Origin: a virus
Taxonomy: Duplodnaviria > Heunggongvirae > Uroviricota > Caudoviricetes
Length of the DNA stretch: 28,407 nucleotides
Strand: one strand, 5' to 3'
Virus record (IMG/VR): IMGVR_UViG_2778260996_000020
Span: 1 to 28,407 of that record
This document shows, piece after piece, positions 9,598 to 28,101 of this stretch. Both the position numbers and the translations under genes were made by a program. Within the stretch, counting starts at the first letter, position 1. Each line of letters starts with the position of its first letter. The notes under the pieces were generated by a model. The model did no database searches. It saw only the letters and a program-made list of their open reading frames with translations, and had not been told where the DNA came from.

Positions 9598-12500
9598 TTA
9601 CCCTAATTTAGCTTCAATTGCAGCAAGACGTTCACGAAGAAGTTTATTTTCTTCGCTCATTTCTTGGACCGCTTTAATTAAAAGCGCGTTCACTGCGGAG
9701 TTTGAAATTGTTAAAATTTCTTCTGGGTTATCAAAACCACCAATTTTTGCGGTTTTAACAGCTTCCGGTAATACCTCTTGTAAATCCTGTGCGATAATAC
9801 CAATCTCATGACCTATAACTTCTCGGTCATTAAGAGATTTAACTTTATCGTAGGTTTTAACTTTGAGTTTATTTACCTTATCCACCGCATTTTCTTCGTA
9901 ATCTTCAACATTAATTTTCAGACGACGATCGGAACGAATATAAACATCGTTAAAGTTTCCGTTACCAGTGGCATGAAATTCTCCACTTGCATGGAATTGA
10001 TAATCAGCACCCTGAACATGAAGAACCGCTGCCGCAGTATTATTACCATCACCCGGACAATGAACGTCCATAGCAGCGATATATTGACGCCCCCAATCAA
10101 CCGCTTTCCAAACAGCATGAGCACTGTCAATACTTTTCTGGCAGTCAACCAACAAACCAGCAGGGCGGTCTCTCCATGCAACATATGCACCACCATCAAC
10201 TTCACCACGGATAAGTCCTTGATCTGCGGCATAAGGAACACGCCCTTCCAGTTTAATCATCGCGCCCTGGAAGTGATGTGTAAATTGTCCACCGTGGTTA
10301 TTGCGAATATGTAAAATACCCTCATCTGTAGCCCAGATAACAGCCTTTTCCGTATCGCTATCATCTCTAAACCAGACGTGGCGAGCACCAGCAGAGTTTT
10401 TGATAGTAATCCCGGAAGGTCCATGCACAGTAAAAGCGCCAGCAACATCAAACATCAAACTGTTATCTGTCCTACGTTCAGTATAGAAGTGATAACCTTT
10501 GGAATCACCGACTTCCATCACTGCCGCGCGACCAACTTCTGAATTTCCCCAATTATTAATAGAGAATCGTTCAGAGCTATTATTCATCTGATTTAGGTAT
10601 AATGTACCATCAGTGAATGTTTCGCCAAAGAATCTGGTTTTAACGCCGTTAGTACCCCCCACGCGTTCAAATTCAGCCAAGAAACCTTTGGAATCTCGCA
10701 TACTCAAAACGTTATTGCGTCCTGTATTACTGTTACCCCAATGGATTAATTCAATATAGTCCATTGACTGACGAGACCCTGATCTAAACACCATATTATC
10801 TTCGATGCGGGTGCTACCATCAATTCCCAGATGTAAACAGCGTGCGGTAGCTGTGCCACCTAGATCTAATCCACCTTCGGCGAAATCATAACTAAATGGT
10901 CTACGAGTATTCCACGTCCCAAAGGAATCTTTTAAATCGGTAGTAAGAATATGGAAGCTAGAACCATCATTACGAAGGATTAAACCATAGTTACCACCTT
11001 TAACAGCCAAACGAGCATTTTCAGATAATGCAACTTCGCTATTCATTACAATTTTCTGGCCTCTACCGCCAGTAATATGTAATTCACCGTCTTCAATCAG
11101 GTTTATAGAGTTTTGACCGTTGTCGTTCCACCAAATAAAATCTTTGGTCTGACCATCACCGAAGCCAAACCAGCCATTACGAACATCTTGTCCAGTGCGA
11201 TAATCCATGAAATTAAAATGACTTGATTCGTTTGGTCCTCGACGAATATCAATACCAGCATTAGAACCGGAACCTAAGCCACCATCGATGGTCAATCTAC
11301 GAATATGCAAACCAGTCCCAGAAGACAACAATAGTTGTTGACCTGAGTCTGTACCTCCAGTGGCAAGACGATAATTCTGGTCATCAACGGTTTCATGCCA
11401 GATTGTCGCGCTGGCAGAGCTTCGAAACCGACGCAACATCTTTTTAGCATTTGTCGGTTGTTCGTTCATATGCTCAATGTCATATTGTCCTTGATGGTTT
11501 CCAGCAAAGTTTAACGTCCCACGGTTGCTAAAGTTATTGAACGATGAAATGTTAAGAGCATCAAAAATTTCGTCTGCAACAGGTTTTTCACCACCCAGAT
11601 ATTCAGGAGTATCCAACAGGTTTAAAGAAACACCACCGGAAGAAACTTGATATTCTGCTAAAACAAATCCTGTATGTGCACCGTAGTAAGCGTAAAGATC
11701 GTAATTGTCGCCATCGGTTGGAATAGCGCAAAAATGTTGTTCATAATGCCAAATAGTATAATACGCATTGAATACAACACCTTTCGGGCTATTGTTGCCG
11801 CATCGAATCACCAATTCGATAATATTGGCTTGTCCATTATGTCCTACGTTATAACCGTTACCACCAACCAAACGGATCTTAGCCGTGCGACCGTGTTGTT
11901 GTGGCATTGTCAAAGTGCCTAGTTTAAACCAACCACCCTCGATACCAAAATTAAGCGTCTTCTGGAACAGTCGGTCAATTTCTGCTTTCGAATATGCGCC
12001 AATTTCAGCCGGAGTAGGTTTATCGCCTTCATGATACATGCGGTGAGAATATGACAAATTACCTAATTCATCATAGCCGTATGTTCTTACAGTAGCATGT
12101 GGATTAGACCCATAAGTGAACTCGAAGCCACGAGCATGATTAACACCAGATGGATGCGGAACATGCAAGATCATTGCAATATGACCCGCCAGGTCATTCA
12201 TGCGGAATGCACCAAAGTAATCAAGATTACGCGCATTTGGATCATCAAAATAGTTTGCGGTCTTAGACAGCAAATAACCATCAGTATAAGTGTTTACGTG
12301 TTTTTTGATGTACTTGCCATCAGCAGATCCATCGGCTGCATCAATACGGCTTTCTAAACGTGCCAGTTCAGAATCAGTGTAAGACTTGTTATTGTCAACT
12401 TTGCTATGAATTGCTGTATTTTTGGCTTCAACATCACGGGTTAATGCTGCGACGTTATCCGCTGCCTCTTGCTTATTGGCTGCAATCACACCAGTAAGGT

Positions 12501-12963
12501 TATTGTAGGTGTCAGTTAACTGATTTTCCGCATAGACTTTATTTGCTGCGATAGTGCGGTCAGTTTCTGCCTTAATCAAATCAACCTTGTCATTGATTGC
12601 TTTGTCATTGCTTGCGATGGTTGCATCGGTGCGGGATTTAATATCATCAACTTTATTGTTAATTTCTGCGTGATTTGCTGCGATGGTTGCATCAGTAGTT
12701 TGTTTAATTTCATCTACTTTAGCGTGAATATTGCGGTCATTTACTGCAATTGTGCTATCTAGTTCTTGTTTGTTAGCATCAACTTTAGATTCTAGTGCCG
12801 CGTGAGTTTCAGGAGAAACAGAGATTTGAACTACTTCATGATCTCGGTCTTTGGTAAAAATAACATGGTCTTTAAGGTTGATTGCTACCTCACCGACCTG
12901 TAATTGTTCCGGCGTTGGTTTTTTGCCAGAAACATTAGTTCGTTTAAATTGGATTGATTGCAT
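9598..12963 (-). CDS. Tail/neck fiber protein with C-terminal intramolecular chaperone (peptidase S74-type) domain, 1121 aa
   Basis: C-terminal ~120 aa carry the Ser-Lys autoproteolysis motif SDRRLK followed by IGHEIGIIAQDLQEVLPEAV and a terminal coiled coil, typical of endosialidase / L-shaped-fiber chaperone domains. N-terminal ~150 aa of degenerate coiled-coil repeats (VDxIKxxTDATIAAN). Gly-rich central region. GAGGTGA SD. Confidence 0.8.
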   Translation of the reverse strand: MQSIQFKRTNVSGKKPTPEQLQVGEVAINLKDHVIFTKDRDHEVVQISVSPETHAALESKVDANKQELDSTIAVNDRNIHAKVDEIKQTTDATIAANHAEINNKVDDIKSRTDATIASNDKAINDKVDLIKAETDRTIAANKVYAENQLTDTYNNLTGVIAANKQEAADNVAALTRDVEAKNTAIHSKVDNNKSYTDSELARLESRIDAADGSADGKYIKKHVNTYTDGYLLSKTANYFDDPNARNLDYFGAFRMNDLAGHIAMILHVPHPSGVNHARGFEFTYGSNPHATVRTYGYDELGNLSYSHRMYHEGDKPTPAEIGAYSKAEIDRLFQKTLNFGIEGGWFKLGTLTMPQQHGRTAKIRLVGGNGYNVGHNGQANIIELVIRCGNNSPKGVVFNAYYTIWHYEQHFCAIPTDGDNYDLYAYYGAHTGFVLAEYQVSSGGVSLNLLDTPEYLGGEKPVADEIFDALNISSFNNFSNRGTLNFAGNHQGQYDIEHMNEQPTNAKKMLRRFRSSASATIWHETVDDQNYRLATGGTDSGQQLLLSSGTGLHIRRLTIDGGLGSGSNAGIDIRRGPNESSHFNFMDYRTGQDVRNGWFGFGDGQTKDFIWWNDNGQNSINLIEDGELHITGGRGQKIVMNSEVALSENARLAVKGGNYGLILRNDGSSFHILTTDLKDSFGTWNTRRPFSYDFAEGGLDLGGTATARCLHLGIDGSTRIEDNMVFRSGSRQSMDYIELIHWGNSNTGRNNVLSMRDSKGFLAEFERVGGTNGVKTRFFGETFTDGTLYLNQMNNSSERFSINNWGNSEVGRAAVMEVGDSKGYHFYTERRTDNSLMFDVAGAFTVHGPSGITIKNSAGARHVWFRDDSDTEKAVIWATDEGILHIRNNHGGQFTHHFQGAMIKLEGRVPYAADQGLIRGEVDGGAYVAWRDRPAGLLVDCQKSIDSAHAVWKAVDWGRQYIAAMDVHCPGDGNNTAAAVLHVQGADYQFHASGEFHATGNGNFNDVYIRSDRRLKINVEDYEENAVDKVNKLKVKTYDKVKSLNDREVIGHEIGIIAQDLQEVLPEAVKTAKIGGFDNPEEILTISNSAVNALLIKAVQEMSEENKLLRERLAAIEAKLG

Positions 12964-18909: not shown

Positions 18910-20817
18910 TTAGAACGATGTTACCCAGCTACGGCCTCTATTTGGGCGTCTGGCGATGTTTTGACGTTGCGGTCGTGTGATTGGCTTAGTTTCTTCGATT
19001 TGCTCGTTAGATTGCGATTTAGGAGCTTCTACGGATTCTTCAACAACACGGTTTAAGCTGTCTTTCATTGCAATGAGTTTATCCCATGACATTTTTGAAA
19101 GGACGTAGCGAGAAGCCGCATAGCTATAAACCAGACAGTCGAGAGCCTCGTTTCGGGTACTACCTGGATTTTTCACCCAACGCACGCCAGTAGTAGTACG
19201 CTTGATGGATTCACTCAAAAGCTGATCGAGATAATCATCAGGAACGGTTTCTGATATTTCTAAGCCAATATGAGGATTATCTTTCAGGTTTCTAACCAGC
19301 ATTTCACGAACAGCGGATTTGCCAACGTTAACACCCAACATAAGCAATTCATGACCACCTGTGCGGGTAGGTTTAACCGGAATCACTGGAGCATTACCAG
19401 ATGAACTACCTTTGATCGCGTGTAGGTTCTTCCACTTGCCGCAAATACGGTATCCGGCTTGAGTGAATCGACCGTTCGATGTATCAAGGAAGCTGGCGAG
19501 CATAGGAACACGTTCACCCTTAACGTTATAGAATTTGGTTTTCTTGAAGTTAACCAGACGATCCCAAACAGGTGATTCATATCGTTCACAGTTATGATCG
19601 TAAAAGCTGCGGTGATCCAGAATGTAAACCTTATCTTTCGCTACACCTAAGATGGTAGATTCTGCGCGGTCCAATTGCTGGTCAATTCCTGAACACAAGA
19701 AAATAACGTCATCAGGAATATTCTCGATAGAAACATCTGTTTTGAGTTGTTCCAGTTCATTTGCTTCTACTGCCGTGTCCTGATCGTCGTACACCTTACC
19801 TAATACGGTGTTAAAAAATGATTGTAAATCAAAGGATTGCCACGCATGACTAAAATCAACCACACAAGCGCGGATCGTGCTGAAAGGTGAATACAGACGG
19901 CTGATCCAGAATCCTGCTACCTCACTTTCGCGGGTTGCTCTCCACTCGCCTTGCGCTACTGCCCTGATTCGTTCCCCTTCTGTCCATGCGTTCTTACAGT
20001 GGGGGCAAATATAACGAGCGGTATCAGGATCGGGTAAGTTCTTACCATCGATGTTACGCCATTCAAATTGAACGTTTTCCCACTCGATCACCTGGTGTTC
20101 CCCGCAATGCGGACACGGAACAAAAAACATACGCATATCGCTTGATAACCATTGCTGGTTAATGCTTCCGAGCTTACTGGTCGGGGTACTGGATACGACT
20201 AATCGGCCTTCATCGCCAAAGGTAGTTAAACGGTTAGCAGCCAGTGCCACCGGATCACCTTCTTCTGAGGCTGTAGCAGCATCGATTTCGTCTAGTAGTC
20301 CGACCTTTGCAGTCTTACCGCGCAGGGTTGATGGACTGGTAAGCGATACCATGTACAGGAAGTGATTCGTTTTTAGCTGGAGTTGGTTATTGTTGTTAAC
20401 CGCATTGCGATCATTCTTGTCTGTAACCACGTCTTTTAATGCATCACATGCTTCGATAGACGGTCGGATCTTACCAGCGAGATATTGAGACATTTCTTTA
20501 GCGGTTGATTGTCCGATAATCATATTGCATGGATCGTTAGCCATCTGGTTAAACAGGATGCCATTCAGGATGGTAGTCTTTCCGATCTGCGCACTGGTCA
20601 TCAGAACATACTTTTTCTTGTTCTCAAGGAAAGGAGCATCAATCATACCTTTCTGGAATGACAGCAATTTAACTTTATCCCCAGCTTGAGGACCATCTAC
20701 CAGCACCATATTAGCTTCGCACCATTCCGATGGAAGGAGTTTAGGCGGTGGCGTAATATATTTGGCTGCATTTCTGAGAATCTTTTTTAATTTGGCCTTA
20801 TTAGAAATTAGTTTCAT
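18910..20817 (-). CDS. terL: Terminase large subunit (GpA-like), 635 aa
   Basis: Walker A-like SAQIGKTT and Walker B-like VGLLDEID in the N-terminal ATPase half. Cys-x2-Cys pairs (CPHCGEHQ...CPHCKNAW). Acidic nuclease-like C-terminal half. GAGGGT SD. Confidence 0.85.
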
Positions 20818-20905: not shown

Positions 20906-21508
20906 ATGCTAATTAATCAGCAAGAAAGAGATGAATTAGAATTAGCCTTGTCTTGTACCGATCATGAATATCGTTTGCCAGTGAAGCACCATCACAAGAA
21001 GACTGATTACACAACATCTGGGTTTAGCCGTGAGGAAGCTAAACAGATTTTAATCGAGTTGTATCGTGATCATGGGTATACCGATATTCATAACTTCTTT
21101 AAGAAGCATCGCACATCACAGACAGAGTTTCAGCGAGTCCGTGAATGGTTTGATTTTGACATTAAGCGATTCTATCGAGTGGATGACGGTCCTATCTATC
21201 GGTTGCACTGGAAGCCGATCCGAGAAGTGTTGAAACAGAAGAGACTAAATCACGCAATTACACGCTATCGTAACGAGGCTTTCAAGAAAGGCTATGGTGA
21301 TACAAGGGAACTATTCGTTGAACTCGCTAACGTGCGTTATAGCCACTATTACAGGAATCCTAAAGAGTTCTTCGAAGTGCTGCGCAAGGTTGATATAAGT
21401 CGGGGTACATACTATTCACGGTTGAAGAAGTACGGGATTAGGGCAGAGTTCTTTATGAGTATTGACGACGGAGAACTTTTTCCTATAAAATGTAAGTCCT
21501 CTAAATAA
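20906..21508 (+). CDS. Hypothetical basic protein, 200 aa
   Basis: AAGGGGGG SD 6 nt upstream. Arg/Lys/Tyr-rich. Divergent from the terminase gene. Followed by a small HTH gene and a strong terminator. Confidence 0.5.
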
Positions 21509-21543: not shown

Positions 21544-21768
21544 ATGACTACTAAAGCTACTCGCGGTCGTCCGGCACGTTTTAATCGTGAACAACTGGCA
21601 GCGATTGTAAAAGCGTACTATCAAGCGCCGAAAGGTAAAGCCGAAAAAGAACAAGTATTGAGTGAACACGGTATTTCAATTGCTCAATTCTACAAATCAC
21701 TCCATAAAGTTGATTTGAAATTCTTTGTTCAGGTTGACGGTGAAATGGTAGAAGCAACAGGAATTTGA
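21544..21768 (+). CDS. Small HTH DNA-binding protein, ~75 aa (paralog of 24965-25144)
   Basis: Track ORF starts at a GTG (21511). The ATG at 21544 has a GGAG SD at 9 nt. N-terminal RGRPARFNREQLAAIVKAYY resembles TetR/transposase-type HTH openings. Terminator follows. Confidence 0.5.
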   Translation: MTTKATRGRPARFNREQLAAIVKAYYQAPKGKAEKEQVLSEHGISIAQFYKSLHKVDLKFFVQVDGEMVEATGI

Positions 21769-21821: not shown

Positions 21822-21847
21822 CAAAAAAAGCCCCTGAAATTCAGGGG
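21822..21847 (-). terminator. Intrinsic terminator after Rha-family gene
   Basis: Minus-strand RNA: GCCCCUGAAUUUCAGGGGC hairpin followed by UUUUUUUG. Forms a convergent terminator pair with 21782-21808. Confidence 0.7.
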
Positions 21848-21856
21848 CAAAAATTA

Positions 21857-22699
21857 TTACAGTCCGAAGACTTCCAGTGATCCAACATTCTGGCGAATCA
21901 GCAAAGCAGTGTTATTGACAATTGCTCGTGAGTTGTTCGGCTGTGGCAATTTCAAAGTTGCGGCCTTTTCTTCTTCAAGCAATCCGAGTTTTACGAGATG
22001 CGGGATAGCATCAGCAGTGAACTCGATCTGACCGTGTGCCGACATACGAGCGAACATATAGCCAGGAGGAAGCAGATCATAGCCTTTAGGCTTACCAGAA
22101 GCATCCAGACGACGCTCAAGAACACCAGCAGCACATAAACCTTTCAGAATCATTTGTACCGTCGTAGAGCCTCGTTTTTCGCCTAATAAGCGGCTAAGAC
22201 TGTGTGTGTCGATAGCTTTACGAACATGCAATTCAACCAGTTGTTTCTTTTCTTGAATCAGTTGTTCGTTTGCGGCTTCCAATTCCATTGCCTCACGAAT
22301 CCAGTCGAGCTTAGTCATGTTTGCGTAAGGGTTGATTTGCTGAGAACGCAGTTTTTCATTTTCTTCTTTCAGTCGTTTCCATTCCTGAATAACAACCATT
22401 CGACGCTTAACATCGTAACCAGTAACAAGAGTCAGAGTCATTTCTTCGTCTAAGTGATATACCGGTTCTTTAACAGCATACCCTAAGTTATTGATTCTCT
22501 CGACAAATTCAGTTTTGAGCTGATCGATAATACCTAAAGATTCGTACATTTCGCGAATATCGCGCATTACATTGCTGTGTTTCTTTCCGGTAAATTCAGC
22601 GATCTGACGAGAAGACATGGTCAGCGGTTTGGTGTTATCAACAACCAGAGACACGGAAGCAGTTTTAACAGCAGTATTCATAGCAGTAACAGTATTCAT
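21857..22699 (-). CDS. Rha-family phage regulatory protein (antirepressor-like), 280 aa
   Basis: N-terminal LTMSSRQIAEFTGKKHSNVMRDIREM matches the Rha/pRha domain signature. Coiled-coil middle. AAGGGG SD. Own terminator downstream. Confidence 0.7.
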   Translation of the reverse strand: MNTVTAMNTAVKTASVSLVVDNTKPLTMSSRQIAEFTGKKHSNVMRDIREMYESLGIIDQLKTEFVERINNLGYAVKEPVYHLDEEMTLTLVTGYDVKRRMVVIQEWKRLKEENEKLRSQQINPYANMTKLDWIREAMELEAANEQLIQEKKQLVELHVRKAIDTHSLSRLLGEKRGSTTVQMILKGLCAAGVLERRLDASGKPKGYDLLPPGYMFARMSAHGQIEFTADAIPHLVKLGLLEEEKAATLKLPQPNNSRAIVNNTALLIRQNVGSLEVFGL

Positions 22700-23700: not shown

Positions 23701-23923
23701 AGTGGAAATCCTCTAAAAGAAAGTGAATCAAGTAAGTTCACTATTATTTATAACGAGAATTTTTTATCTATTTGGAAGTGATTGGATTCAGTCGGGCTAA
23801 AGCCCTCCTTCATATATTTGATTAAATCATCATCAAAACGAAGAAGTATCTTTAGAATATAAGAATCTTTCTTTTGGAGAAATTATAATCAGGAAGCAAT
23901 TTAGCAACCGAAGGTTGCAATCC

Positions 23924-23969
23924 CGAAGGGATACCAATCACTTTCTAGAAAGTGATTGGTATCCCTTCG
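23924..23969. repeat. 46 bp perfect palindrome
   Basis: CGAAGGGATACCAATCACTTTC-TA-GAAAGTGATTGGTATCCCTTCG; every position is self-complementary. A GCAACCGAAGGTTGC hairpin lies immediately upstream. Confidence 0.9.
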
Positions 23970-24277
23970 TTCGTTTACTAGAATCAGTTAGTAACTAGTA
24001 TTAAATCCCTTTCTAAGAAAATCCTTTCAAAAGCGAGTGAACGCCGTAGGCGTGAACGTGAGCGAAGCGAACTATCCAATCCCTTTCGAATCCTGCTTGC
24101 AGGTCTTAGAAGGTGTTGATGGGCGCTTCGCGCACGGCTACGCCGTATTCTTTTTGCGAGATCTTTCTTGAACGTAGTGAGAGAAAACGAGCAAAAAGGA
24201 GAACGTTAGTTCGAATTTTATATTCTATGGTCTGTGGGGTGAAATGTCTTTCAAGATCATACACTTATGAGATTGAA

Positions 24278-24399
24278 GTGTAGGGTTAGTGTAGGTGTGT
24301 AGGTTTCATAGTGTAGGTTTGAGGGTGTTATAGTGTAGGTTTACTGACTAGTGTAGTGTAGGCCAATACCTTTAAAGCGTAGGTTTGTAGTGTAGGTTT
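24278..24399. repeat. Iteron array: about 8 direct copies of (A)GTGTAGGTTT
   Basis: Copies at about 24278, 24290, 24297, 24311, 24333, 24356, 24377 (GCGTAGGTTT) and 24390. All same orientation, irregular 0-14 bp spacing. Confidence 0.85.
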
Positions 24400-24593
24400 T
24401 TCATCAAAAATTTTGATAGAAAATTCTTGTATATTATTTAACCGGAAAATCACCAAAAATCGCTGTAAATGCATGATTTAAAAAGAATTATCAAAAGGTC
24501 GCCGTGCTATAATAGGTTATAAAGGTTGATAATCGTTATCCGCCATTTTCACACAAAAATTTTGATAGTCATTTCTCGCTTAGGTCAAGTGCA

Positions 24594-24622
24594 TTGACAA
24601 CTGTCAAGGATTATTTTATACT
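24594..24622 (+). promoter_or_regulatory. Near-consensus sigma70 promoter for the 59 aa HTH / 339 aa / 80 aa operon
   Basis: TTGACA (24594-24599), 17 nt spacer, TATACT (24617-24622). The -35 lies inside a TTGACAACTGTCAA palindrome. Confidence 0.55.
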
Positions 24623-24964
24623 TTTTCTCATTGGTAGGGGTTGAAATTTTAGAAACAATCCCCATATTGATGATAAACAAGATTTTTTCGTGTATAAATA
24701 CATGCATGAAATGATTGTTCACTTCTGAAAATCCCCTGATTCACTGTTAACACACACAGCACTGGTTAAACACACAGTGCTTTTTCGATTGAATAATGTA
24801 CGAATTGATTAATTATTAATCTTCTCTTTAGCAATTCGTGCTCCCGCTGATCAGATATACAGTGGTTTTGCAGGGTTTTCTGAAATGACTTTTATAAATA
24901 GAAGTATCGAGGGCGAAAAGCTCTTTTTATTATCCTTATTAATCCACATTTGAGGAATCTACTT

Positions 24965-25144
24965 ATGGCTAGACCTGTTAAGTTTACTCGTGAAATGATT
25001 GTTGATATTGCTAAACGCTTTTATGGCGATACTGAACGAGGCGGCGAGAATTTCTTTAAGAAGGAAGGAATTGATAGAAGCGGATTCTATAAGCTAATGA
25101 AGAAATACGAAATTCAGATAAAGATTAACGTTCAAGTTTGTTAA
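24965..25144 (+). CDS. Small HTH DNA-binding protein, ~59 aa (paralog of 21544-21768)
   Basis: Track ORF starts at TTG (24950). The ATG at 24965 has a TGAGGAA SD. ARPVKFTREMIVDIAKRFY aligns with GRPARFNREQLAAIVKAYY of the paralog. Shared GI...FYK motif. Confidence 0.5.
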   Translation: MARPVKFTREMIVDIAKRFYGDTERGGENFFKKEGIDRSGFYKLMKKYEIQIKINVQVC

Positions 25145-25175
25145 TCCACTTTCACTGAGAATTATACGATGGCTT

Positions 25176-25216
25176 TAAAAATAAAAAGCCTCCCTTGTTG
25201 CAGCAAAGGAGGCTTG
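25176..25216 (-). terminator. Minus-oriented hairpin + T-run (antisense terminator candidate) between small HTH gene and 339 aa gene
   Basis: AAGCCUCC...GGAGGCUU 8 bp stem. On the minus strand it is followed by UUUUUAUUUUU. On the plus strand no U-tract follows. Confidence 0.4.
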
Positions 25217-25260
25217 AAATGAACAATTAAAACTAACACAGCATTCAGGAGTATTTATAA

Positions 25261-26280
25261 ATGAAAAATTCTAAGCGCATCACCTTCAACCTGTTTATTA
25301 AATCCAACGGCAAACTGAACATTACCGTCATGGAAGGTAAAGCAAGCAAACAAGACAAATCCTTTGAAGTAGTATCCGGTAAGACTCTGACCGAAATGCG
25401 TCAGAATGCTGGCATCAAAGACGGTGCTGAATGGCAGATCACTAACCGTTTCGACAAACGTCACGTTAAACCTACACTGGTAGAAGGTGAATCCGTTTAT
25501 TGCTTCGCTCGTGCTGCTAAAGCCGATGAAACTTACTATCTCGCTGTTGTTAAAACTGCTTCCGGCTTCCGTGCTGTAATGCATCACAAGAGCAAGCGTA
25601 ACGAATACGGCGTAGAGACCCAGGAAGTTGCTAAACGCTTCCGTACTGTTGCTACCGAATCCACTGTAAAAGATGTTTCTGGTACTGTTAACACCACTAA
25701 AGGCGGTTCCTTCTACAACCACGCATTACAGGTTACTTCCTCCTTCTTCTGCAAAAAAGAAGCACAGAAAGAAGTTGCTCCGGTAGTAGTTGAAGAAGTT
25801 AAAGAAGAAGTTGCAGTGGTTGAATCTTCCGAAGTTGAAGCACTGAACGCACGCATTGCTGAACTGGAAGCAGAAATGGCAGCAGTTAAAGCAGAAAACG
25901 CATCTCTGAAAGCTGAACTGTCAGCACAGGAAACCACTTTCGAAGTAGCAGCGGTTGAAGTTGAAGCAGTTGAAGAAAAATCCATTGATGAAGAACTGGA
26001 AGAACTCCTTAACTATCGTTGGGGTAACGGTGAAGAAGTAGAACAGAAAGAAGCTGATCCGGTAGTAGTTCCGGTTCCGGTTGAAGCAGAATCCGCACCA
26101 GTTACCAACTTTGAAACACTGCGCAATAACTTTATGGCTAAATTCAAAACCACTTGGGAAGATACCGAAGAAGAACAAGAAGAGATTGAAGTAAACGAAG
26201 ACGAGATCCGCGAAGCACATATGGCACTGCATGACGCTATCTATGACACCAACTACAGCGCCTACGCATACGCAGCTTAA
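25261..26280 (+). CDS. Hypothetical acidic coiled-coil protein, 339 aa, probable highly expressed early protein
   Basis: AGGAG SD. Codon usage strongly biased toward major E. coli-type codons (CTG, CGT, GAA, AAA, GTT, ACC, TCC), unlike neighbouring genes. Central Ala/Glu coiled coil. Acidic C-terminal third. Confidence 0.6.
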   Translation: MKNSKRITFNLFIKSNGKLNITVMEGKASKQDKSFEVVSGKTLTEMRQNAGIKDGAEWQITNRFDKRHVKPTLVEGESVYCFARAAKADETYYLAVVKTASGFRAVMHHKSKRNEYGVETQEVAKRFRTVATESTVKDVSGTVNTTKGGSFYNHALQVTSSFFCKKEAQKEVAPVVVEEVKEEVAVVESSEVEALNARIAELEAEMAAVKAENASLKAELSAQETTFEVAAVEVEAVEEKSIDEELEELLNYRWGNGEEVEQKEADPVVVPVPVEAESAPVTNFETLRNNFMAKFKTTWEDTEEEQEEIEVNEDEIREAHMALHDAIYDTNYSAYAYAA

Positions 26281-26295
26281 TAGAGGGGTGAATCT

Positions 26296-26538
26296 ATGAT
26301 GAATCAAAACAAAGAATTTCTGGGTAATCTGATGTTAGAAATTACCAAAATGAAAGAAAGAATGGTAGCGATGGAATCAGAGATTAAAACACTTAAAGCT
26401 GATAATAAGGCGTTGAGAAAGTCCTTAAAGCTGATTGATGAGACTAATGCGGTTATGATGGATCATGTATTCCCTGAGTGGCGAAATGAAACTAAACCTA
26501 CACAACATAAGAAACTTACACTTCGAATTGTTGCATAA
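26296..26538 (+). CDS. Hypothetical coiled-coil protein, 80 aa
   Basis: GAGGGG SD. Translationally close to the upstream gene. Heptad-like sequence. Confidence 0.5.
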   Translation: MMNQNKEFLGNLMLEITKMKERMVAMESEIKTLKADNKALRKSLKLIDETNAVMMDHVFPEWRNETKPTQHKKLTLRIVA

Positions 26539-27250: not shown

Positions 27251-27802
27251 TTAAGACACATCAAATTCATCGTCTTCTTCTGGTTCTTGTTCCGGTTCAT
27301 CCATTAATGGTAATTCTTCTTCCTCGTCTTCTCCCAAATCTGCATTTTCGAACAAGTCCCCTACTTCATTTAAACGACGCTCGATAATCTCTCTTAGCTT
27401 ATTCTTCAATGTTTTCTGGTCATTGGCAGATTCGAGAATTTCTAGGGCATCGATTGTGGCGATCTGCAAAATAGTCTGCTTCACTTTCCCGCAATATTCC
27501 GCTAGCTCCTGCTCCACATACCCGACGGGAATCAGGAGATTCATCGCTTCCTGGTTCTCTCGTTCGGCTGCATCTGCTAATGCTCTCTCACGGCGTAATT
27601 TCTCTACGTCGATTTGTTCCTTGACAGTAGTTTCTTTAAGCGGGTTGATGATATTTTTCAAGACCCATTCTGTTCCTTCTTTGGCTGGCACGCGGCGGGT
27701 ATTGGTATTAAATGGCATTCCTCGTTCTTGCCATTTCTTAGCGGCGTTAATTGTATAGCCGTATAAACGGGAAATTTCTGTAAGGGTTAATTCTTCTTTC
27801 AT
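27251..27802 (-). CDS. Nu1-like DNA-binding protein (candidate terminase small subunit), ~183 aa
   Basis: Start placed at second ATG (27802), which has a GGAGGA SD. N-terminal LTEISRLYGYTINAAKKWQERGMPF resembles the winged-HTH of lambda Nu1 (IRTIQNWQEQGMPV). Followed by EKLRRE coiled coil and acidic C-terminus. Confidence 0.5.
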   Translation of the reverse strand: MKEELTLTEISRLYGYTINAAKKWQERGMPFNTNTRRVPAKEGTEWVLKNIINPLKETTVKEQIDVEKLRRERALADAAERENQEAMNLLIPVGYVEQELAEYCGKVKQTILQIATIDALEILESANDQKTLKNKLREIIERRLNEVGDLFENADLGEDEEEELPLMDEPEQEPEEDDEFDVS

Positions 27803-28101
27803 CCGGTTATCCTCCATTAAATTTGCGTAAAATTATTTATCTGATCTGCGCATTCAGGAGAGCGCCTAAAACGCTTTATAACGAAGGGAAAGATCGAGGC
27901 ATGGAAAGGGATTGGCGGGTGTTAATAGTCGCGTAGCGACCGCGCTGGTGGGCTGCACTGCACCTGTTTTGAAATCTCACACGTACATCAAAAACCGGGG
28001 TGCCGAAAACTCCCTTTATTTCACCCGTGGAACAGTACCTTTTGATTTGGTCAAGTCTTTTTTATAAATAATCGAAAATATTTTTCACGCGAGGGCAAAT
28101 C

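Follow-up and report, generated by a model that had tools for sequence, protein, structure and literature searches.

The DNA considered here is a stretch of 28,407 nucleotides (hereafter the window), corresponding to positions 1 to 28,407 of the IMG/VR virus record IMGVR_UViG_2778260996_000020 (Caudoviricetes), which makes up most of a serine-recombinase prophage of Escherichia coli of about 35 kb. The subject of this report is an array of short direct repeats in this prophage and the protein, p339, whose gene lies 0.9 kb downstream of it. An earlier reading made from the letters alone (the sequence-only reading) had placed about eight same-orientation copies of a 10-mer, within about 120 bp, in the largest non-coding stretch of the window, and both statements were borne out: eight plus-strand copies of G(T/C)GTAGG(T/G)TT were found between positions 24278 and 24399 (Table 1), inside the region 23701–24964, which is the largest gap between credible genes and within which the RefSeq annotation of related genomes contains nothing. 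Successive copies were spaced by 11, 8, 14, 22, 23, 21 and 13 bp, the extended consensus unit of the array being TAGTGTAGGTTT, and their placement was helically phased (best period 11.2 bp, R = 0.83, P = 0.013 versus random placement). The enrichment that the same reading had proposed as a check was also found, in that GTGTAGG occurred 11 times on the two strands of the window, seven of them within the 122 bp of the array, versus an expectation of 1.45 ± 1.31 and a maximum of 5 in 100 dinucleotide shuffles. Its exclusion of a CRISPR array likewise stood, the repeats being 10-mers 0–13 bp apart, whereas CRISPR repeats measure 23–50 bp and alternate with unique spacers of similar length, and no cas genes were found in the window or the remaining prophage. 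Scanning viral contigs for two copies of GTGTAGGTTT returned 119 contigs, mostly unrelated, and was uninformative. Outside the array, exact 10-mers inverted relative to it were located in the p339 gene and in the adjacent p80 gene, for which we estimate that about 0.05 copies would be expected by chance; they were not kept in the 77%-identical relative at locus L155.

Relatives of the prophage were found to carry interchangeable arrays. Besides the array of the window, designated type A and kept in all A-type relatives, three others occupied its exact position in otherwise homologous non-coding regions: 1) type B, with 9–10 same-orientation copies of TTTCAGGGGCAAAAAT and one inverted copy 54 bp upstream, 2) type C, in which at least 16 copies of (A/C)CGGGGA form two clusters separated by 45 bp of AT-rich spacer, and 3) type A′, with five copies of TTAGTGCAGGG and one degenerate copy. 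Every type was helically phased (A, 11.2–11.3 bp; A′, 10.5 bp; B, 10.7–10.8 bp; C, 10.7 bp; R 0.73–0.94 and P 0.001–0.025 each), all four were G-rich on the plus strand (GC skew +0.30 to +0.68 versus −0.05 in the window), and a YAGG or GGG core was common to all. The phasing points to duplex DNA being recognised along one face, i.e., to a cooperative nucleoprotein complex. Single repeats were also present at the rightward promoters of some relatives, inside the spacer in L136 and abutting the −35 element in L169, and an inverted repeat pair flanked a conserved TATAAAT in L155.

The array type corresponded to the N-terminal allele of p339 in 50 of the 50 loci, drawn from E. coli genomes, IMG/VR and metagenomes, in which array region and gene were present together (A, 27; B, 20; C, 2; A′, 1). 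These loci are not all independent, many being near-identical E. coli prophages that represent far fewer independent events; independent evidence comes from there being four types, from block boundaries that coincide, and from the recombinant backgrounds of p59 (a small helix-turn-helix [HTH] protein encoded between array and p339) and of the small terminase subunit (TerS). The correspondence was graded, since a protein 77% identical to p339 stood beside the same motif, GTGTAGG (L155), and the more distant one, 46% identical, stood beside the type-A′ array with GTGCAGG (L154), a motif differing by one or two bases. Block comparison with L132 (type B) and L143 (type C) revealed two swapped cassettes, module 1 with the array and module 2 with the p339 and p80 genes, the boundaries of module 2 being alike in both comparisons (Table 1). 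The 860 bp between the modules, which contain the p59 gene, are shared and recombine freely; therefore, linkage alone is not the whole explanation. Consistent with this free exchange, p59 alleles were mixed, a window-like p59 accompanying B arrays in L132 and L159 and the other allele accompanying A arrays in L148–151, L164, L169 and L190. TerS was 88–100% identical throughout A, B and C phages, and its two N-terminal HTH alleles were each found with A and B arrays, as were the alleles of the large terminase subunit (TerL, two alleles), Rha, p152, p200 and p74. Because they were unlinked to array type, TerS, the small HTH proteins and p200 were removed as array readers. The sequence-only reading had proposed as binders a Nu1-like protein, which is indeed encoded nearby (the TerS of Table 1), the small HTH proteins and a 200-residue basic protein; none of these tracks the array, and p339, which it did not mention, does. 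The array reader that remains would be p339, perhaps together with p80, and on these comparisons the array and p339 very probably form a cognate binding pair.

Table 1. Repeat copies, swap boundaries, genes and predicted signals at the array locus (window positions)
Feature	Position	Strand	Remark
Type-A array, eight same-orientation copies of G(T/C)GTAGG(T/G)TT	24278–24399	+	phased at about 11 bp
Array copies GTGTAGGGTT, GTGTAGGTGT, GTGTAGGCCA and GCGTAGGTTT	starts 24278, 24289, 24356 and 24377, respectively	+	
Exact 10-mer GTGTAGGTTT, four array copies	starts 24297, 24311, 24333 and 24390	+	
Isolated exact GTGTAGGTTT in p339 gene	25468–25477	−	inverted relative to array
Isolated exact GTGTAGGTTT (26494–26503) and one-mismatch copy (26512–26521) in p80 gene	26494–26521	−	
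Homologous block	up to ~24036		versus L132 (B) and L143 (C)
Swapped block	24037–24401 (versus B); ~24012–24399 (versus C)		right end exactly at last repeat
Homologous block	24402–25260 (versus B); 24400–25215 (versus C)		94% to L132, 80% to L143
Swapped block (module 2)	25261–26534		p339 start codon to p80 stop
Homologous block	from 26535		
Swapped cis cassette (module 1): long hairpin, leftward promoter-like sites, array	24037–24401		blastn block boundaries versus L132 (B) and L143 (C)
Long imperfect hairpin followed by U/T run	24033–24157	+	ΔG −55.8 kcal/mol, z = −4.4
Two overlapping leftward sigma-70-like sites, AAGACA-17-TAGAAT and TTCACC-17-TAAAAT	24215–24250	−	9/12 matches each, weak
AT-rich stretch with A-tracts, abutting array; candidate unwinding region	24400–24520		27% G+C
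Extended −10, TGcTATAAT	~24508–24516	+	sequence reading
Near-consensus rightward promoter, TTGACA-17-TATACT, ahead of p59-p339-p80	24594–24622	+	11/12 consensus match
p59, small HTH protein between array and partner gene	24965–25144	+	weak HTH_Tnp_1 match for L134 allele
p339, predicted cognate array-binding protein	25261–26280	+	50/50 concordance; swap begins exactly at start codon
p80, small coiled-coil protein, swapped with p339	26296–26538	+	module 2 ends at p80 stop
Nu1-type small terminase (TerS)	27251–27817	−	phrog_57, E = 7e-16

The proteins at the position of p339 are 313–339 residues long across the types, the B-type protein having 313. p339 consists of a basic N-terminal domain (residues 1 to about 168), a coiled coil (about 190–235) and an acidic tail ending in ...NYSAYAYAA. 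The net charge of the N-terminal half is +12 in A, +8 in B, +4 in A′ and +1 in C, and the C-terminal halves are strongly acidic in all types (−34 in A, −23 in B). The A and B proteins aligned only in the coiled coil and acidic C-terminal part, and in a profile comparison only the last 30 or so residues were significantly similar (hhalign 93%; ..MxLHDxxYxTN(Y/F)S), a pattern that fits a variable DNA-reading head joined to a common effector tail. The full-length model was poor (mean predicted local distance difference test score, pLDDT, 52.8), with a long helix at residues 190–235; that of the N-terminal domain was moderate (pLDDT 64.5, predicted template modelling score 0.64, residues 30–110 at 77–91) and displayed a helix packed against an antiparallel sheet. 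Family searches and model-based fold comparison revealed no winged-helix, HTH or ribbon-helix-helix (RHH) signature in p339, no match to the Rep, O or RepA_N families or folds, and no matching Pfam-A model. An exhaustive phmmer search with the A-type N-terminal domain against 1.84 billion representative proteins yielded two real relatives only, and word-indexed searches of large protein collections returned near-identical hypothetical proteins of E. coli and Shigella only.

p80 is absent from type B and is replaced by a 333-residue open reading frame (ORF) in type C. The proteins of the swapped module end in ..YAYAA (p339, 26265–26280), ..TLRIVA (p80, 26521–26538), and ..LLDFAA and ..TLRLVA (the C-type ORFs of L143). 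We take the C-termini of p339 and p80 to resemble ssrA-type ClpX tags, which suggests that these proteins may undergo ClpXP-dependent turnover. Searches of Pfam, PHROGs and NCBIfam with p339, p80, p59, p152, p110, p200 and p74 produced nothing beyond coiled-coil noise and a weak HTH_Tnp_1 match. Three of these, p200 (20906–21508, in two or three copies), p74 (21544–21768) and p59, have in common a resolvase/IS-type HTH motif, F[TN]RE ... GI.[RK]S.FYKL.KKY; by sequence they appear to be a paralogous family of small DNA-binding proteins, which may hold the switch or excision functions of the phage.

Careful examination of the non-coding region revealed further elements around the array, promoter calls here being consensus matches only. 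The long hairpin has a central stem, GAGCGAAGCG/CGCTTCGCGC, that is invariant across A, A′ and B cassettes, with a variable loop; its comparison, over 37 pairs, showed little covariation, and a terminator-like site was called. It could act as RNA or as a cruciform. The strong promoters that the sequence-only reading had described are matched by the near-consensus rightward promoter ahead of p59; the leftward sites adjoining the left edge of the array are weak and their −35 is not conserved in L155. The AT-rich DNA of that reading corresponds to the stretch abutting the array, which is homologous in L132 and L143 and is also promoter-upstream DNA. GC skew was uninformative for origin mapping because gene orientation flips at the same place. 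The 46-bp perfect palindrome noted earlier is also real (23924–23969) but confined to A-type relatives; since B and C relatives carry just one of its arms, the palindrome is the product of an inverted duplication, not a functional core under conservation. Together with an upstream promoter-like element, the palindrome could mark the limits of a small RNA, about 110 nt long.

Several additional sequences were noticed in the same region. On the plus strand, positions 23793–23892 combine a GGGCtaaaGCCC stem-loop with AT-rich DNA and a TAGAAT box; this segment is 76–82% identical to an intergenic element that recurs in Krischvirus (RB49-like, T4-type) phages, and it fits the promoter/stem-loop 'PeSL' cassettes known from them (PMC2839356). 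Its occurrence in a temperate prophage of siphovirus type hints at exchange with T4-type phages. The near-palindrome ATCAAAA(A)TTTTGAT occurs twice (24403–24417 and 24552–24566), each time upstream of a rightward promoter, and also in L132 and L143, which have the same right flank; the two copies resemble operator sites of a dimeric regulator distinct from p339. Ahead of p59, two tandem copies of CACTG(T)TAACACACACAG and a conserved CTCTTTAGCAATTCGTGCT box, at 24742–24777 and 24826–24845, are further candidate regulatory sites; all relatives have the CTCTTTAGCAATTCGTGCT box, L134 and L154 in duplicate.

Repeat units were also located away from their own arrays. B-type phages with an alternative right flank (L136, ~7325–7390; L134, 6873–6925; L169, ~7180–7225) retain two to three copies of GTGTAGG, one of which lies within the spacer of a TTGACA-17-TATAAT promoter; these could be a recombination-junction remnant inside an A array, or a cross-regulation site for a co-resident A-type phage. 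An exact type-B unit, ATTCAGGGGCAAAAAT, forms one arm of a bidirectional terminator (21825–21858) after the Rha gene in A-type and B-type phages alike. For this reason the isolated type-B 16-mer at 21843 was not counted as a binding site; the B repeat may have evolved from the terminator copy, or that copy may serve the B protein as an additional site.

The non-coding region was matched in 58 of 5,426 complete E. coli genomes (about 1%), every time on the chromosome, and the 152-residue protein encoded beside it (p152) is residue-for-residue the same in many E. coli assemblies with constant gene order. The prophage of about 35 kb interrupts hicB in strain FDAARGOS_946 and is inserted in ycdX in other strains. 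That of FDAARGOS_946 carries a 559-residue large serine recombinase at its far end, a lysis module, a siphovirus-type tail/head module and a lambda gpA-type TerL, the best cultured relative of which is only 43% identical; the family has no cultured relative. Among 50,697 phage records there was no near-identical phage DNA and no match to the non-coding DNA or to p339; a sensitive search revealed the short Krischvirus element only. The species-representative genomes searched contained no relative. Family-library and annotation scans across the prophage recognised no replication enzyme, no known initiator and no CI-type repressor, and no other repeat-rich candidate origin was recognised in it. 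The TerL (18910–20817) and TerS genes are 6.4 kb apart with the entire early control region between them, TerS lying at the extreme prophage end, adjoining the attachment site, a layout unusual for a lambda-type terminase. The siphovirus-type tail module contains a 1121-residue tail fibre (9598–12963, minus strand), the C-terminal half of which resembles gp37, the distal subunit of the T4 long tail fibre (phrog_1699, E = 1e-138). Two further records deserve mention: L171 (E. coli HeN100, NZ_CP044443.1, 2390000–2403500) carries ISKpn26 inside the non-coding region of the prophage and ISApl1-mcr-1-pap2 immediately after the B-type protein gene, which places a colistin-resistance gene within the phage family; and L156 (Escherichia phage DCP80, PQ671644.1, 141 kb) has T4-type genes (motA, rIIA, ndd) together with a terminase of lambda type and a block of structural genes like that of a siphovirus, and is either a true hybrid or a chimeric assembly.

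Three functions had been offered for the array by the sequence-only reading, namely a replication origin, a packaging-recognition site and a multi-site regulator binding platform. A specific platform with many sites for a protein to bind has strong support, the packaging site fell with the unlinked TerS alleles (see below), and the origin appears to be the most likely function: we consider that the array has about an even chance of being an iteron-type replication origin with p339 as a lambda-O-like orphan initiator, possibly also autoregulatory. The array would then be the cis half of a two-part specificity system, of which p339 would be the trans half. Early rightward transcription from the promoters at ~24510 and 24594–24622 would produce p59, p339 and p80; p339 would oligomerise via its central coiled coil, and its basic N-terminal domains would dock on the eight phased GTGTAGG sites along one helix face and so assemble a nucleoprotein complex, either wrapped or filamentous. 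As lambda O does at ori-lambda and plasmid Rep proteins do at their iterons, this complex may destabilise the adjoining AT-rich DNA, and the acidic C-terminal tail, perhaps with p80, may recruit host replication proteins. p339 may also autoregulate its own operon, as suggested by the repeats at or near the rightward promoter in some relatives.

The origin draws support from the AT-rich stretch that abuts the array, which may be an unwinding region but is also promoter-upstream DNA, from phased direct repeats with spacings of 11 and 22 bp, which are typical of iterons, from a partner protein whose presumed DNA-reading head varies and whose tail is conserved, and from the fact that no other replication function was recognised in the phage. 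Iteron initiators usually autoregulate their own operon through promoter repeats, and the repeats at the promoters of L136, L169 and L155 would fit such Rep-style autoregulation. The p59-p339-p80 order (small HTH protein, binder, small protein) resembles the cro/cII-O-P gene order. In addition, strain BS74R-D contains two intact prophages of the family, in hicB and ycdX, which have an identical B protein and p59 and differ in Rha, p200, p74, p152 and TerS; such an identical pair in a double lysogen is hard to reconcile with the array and p339 being an immunity determinant. An A-type and a B-type prophage were found together in UTME-9. The apparent homotypic double prophage of HeN100 was rejected, as it proved to be an insertion sequence splitting one non-coding region.

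Several points weigh on the other side. The array and the p339 gene are only 0.9 kb apart, so that part of their association is physical linkage, and we infer both binding and replication. No DnaA box (TTWTNCACA) was found in the window, one-mismatch sites being all more than 290 bp from the array, and no helicase loader was recognisable in the prophage. No known Rep family initiator is encoded nearby, the co-varying p339 matching no Rep family, and 72,556 plasmids contained no p339 homologue and hence no independent sign of replicon function. The repeats, of 10–16 bp, are shorter than classic iterons of 17–22 bp, the array lies between divergent promoter regions, where operators sit, and the double-lysogen argument comes from one genome.

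The position between divergent promoters would be expected if the array were instead a transcriptional operator or architectural array, coated cooperatively by p339, much as P2 Cox, pSM19035 omega or ParR at parC coat theirs, to repress or activate the divergent early promoters and so regulate lysis/lysogeny or early transcription, the cassettes being regulatory or immunity types and not replicon types. We regard this as less likely than the origin and as its most serious competitor. The array does lie between the leftward sites (24250→24215) and the rightward promoters, and single repeats occur in the spacer of, or abut the −35 of, the near-consensus rightward promoter in L136 and L169 and flank TATAAAT in L155; at the rightward promoters of the window itself, there is no repeat. 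The two clusters of type C around an AT-rich segment recall R1 parC, and exchange of repressor and operator as a cassette is classic for heteroimmune phages; yet the two intact prophages of BS74R-D, with identical protein and array type, would be unexpected for an immunity determinant (n = 1). With no CI-like repressor recognisable in the prophage, the switch regulator is also missing and p339 could fill that place, but this would leave the phage without a candidate origin or initiator, p339 has no HTH or RHH signature, and direct repeats in phase, numbering from 8 to more than 16, are more usual for an origin or a centromere than for a phage operator. The operator and origin functions are not exclusive, since Rep proteins autoregulate.

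Action of the array as RNA, either as a G-rich repeat transcript that binds or titrates p339 in the manner of a CsrB-type sponge or as an R-loop or primer, is very improbable. Every copy is on one strand, the four types are G-rich on that same strand, and promoter-like sites and structured hairpins lie upstream on it; against this, helical phasing of 10.5–11.3 bp in all types is characteristic of the recognition of duplex DNA, there are inverted copies that look functional (the B copy 54 bp upstream of the B array and the inverted pair of L155), and Rfam searches in gathering and E-value modes found nothing, nor did tRNA scans. We attach as little weight to a centromere or tether, by which p339 would attach the phage DNA to some structure or motor of the host so as to partition or position it: phased short direct repeats with a coiled-coil, acidic-tailed binder do resemble ParR/parC-type or KfrA-like proteins, and the conserved C-terminal ..LHDxxYxTN(Y/F)S looks like a docking motif, but no ParA, ParM or TubZ-type motor was found in the prophage, the element is kept integrated by its serine recombinase, and the plasmids searched contained no homologue. 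Finally, a packaging site of cosB or pac type read by the Nu1-like TerS was rejected as the least probable of all, since, although Nu1-type TerS and gpA-type TerL are both present and lambda cosB is likewise made of repeated R sites, TerS is nearly the same with A, B or C arrays and both its HTH alleles occur with A and B, the array adjoins neither terminase gene (2.9 kb from TerS, 3.5 kb from TerL), and the partner that co-varies is p339.

When compared with known systems, the array and p339 as origin and initiator would work most like lambda ori/O and the plasmid iteron origins, although p339 falls outside the lambda O, Rep and PLE RepA families by sequence or fold. With lambda they share several phased repeats beside an AT-rich stretch, a variable N-terminal DNA-reading half joined to a C-terminal effector half, joint exchange of repeat and N-terminal domain among related phages, and a gene placed downstream of a small early regulator and encoding a probably unstable protein. 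The lambda iterons, however, are 19-bp inverted-repeat sites inside the O gene, whereas the repeats here are direct, 10–16 bp long, and situated 0.9 kb upstream in a separate cassette; moreover, p339 matches no O-protein family and no P-like helicase loader is recognisable. The iteron plasmids (P1 RepA, F RepE, R6K pi, RK2 TrfA, pSC101 RepA) likewise have same-orientation repeats phased at about 11 or 22 bp beside AT-rich DNA and a cognate protein encoded alongside, and the extra promoter repeats of some relatives are as expected for autoregulation. They differ in that plasmid Reps are winged-helix proteins acting at origins with DnaA boxes; the prophage has no DnaA box, winged-helix or Rep signature, or plasmid homologue, and its repeats are shorter.

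The closest described arrangement is that of the Vibrio phage-inducible chromosomal island-like element (PLE), a serine-recombinase mobile element whose origin has iterons in a large non-coding region and whose RepA pairs a DNA-binding N-terminal domain with a C-terminal one that is uncharacterised, and has neither helicase nor primase activity (PMC7145576). PLE is a satellite using the replisome of its helper, whereas the element described here is a complete phage. The Staphylococcus aureus pathogenicity islands (SaPI) and other phage-inducible chromosomal islands have short repeats (6–8 bp) in two sets around an AT-rich spacer, as in type C, and co-varying iteron/Rep specificity, but SaPI Rep is a helicase with the origin downstream of rep, and p339 has no ATPase. 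ParR/parC of R1, omega and its heptads in pSM19035, and the P2 Cox boxes are also short phased direct-repeat arrays coated cooperatively by a small protein near promoters; their binders are RHH or HTH proteins of about 70–120 residues, in contrast to the 339 residues of p339 without such a motif, and here there is no partition motor and the array is away from the att site.

Taken together, the array would consist of ordinary-looking iterons read by an orphan protein class, site and reader being exchanged as separate cassettes. Tentatively, and with less assurance than for the origin itself, p339 and its B and C counterparts might represent a previously unrecognised class of sequence-specific DNA-binding initiators, with a basic alpha+beta head unlike known iteron binders, a coiled coil and a shared C-terminal docking peptide, whose heads and arrays are swapped as two separate cassettes to give at least four replicon specificities within a common family of E. 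coli prophages lacking any other replication function.

If the origin reading is true, it would give a function to an orphan protein present in at least about 1% of complete E. coli genomes, and it would identify the origin of a prophage family without recognisable replication genes, one member of which has acquired mcr-1. It would also provide a new domain for DNA recognition that comes in four natural specificity variants, their targets known, a ready system for the study of specificity evolution, and the split cassettes across a recombining spacer would illustrate cleanly, in nature, how selection keeps a cis site and its trans partner matched. Should the regulatory reading be true instead, the same pair would define the switch types of the phage family.

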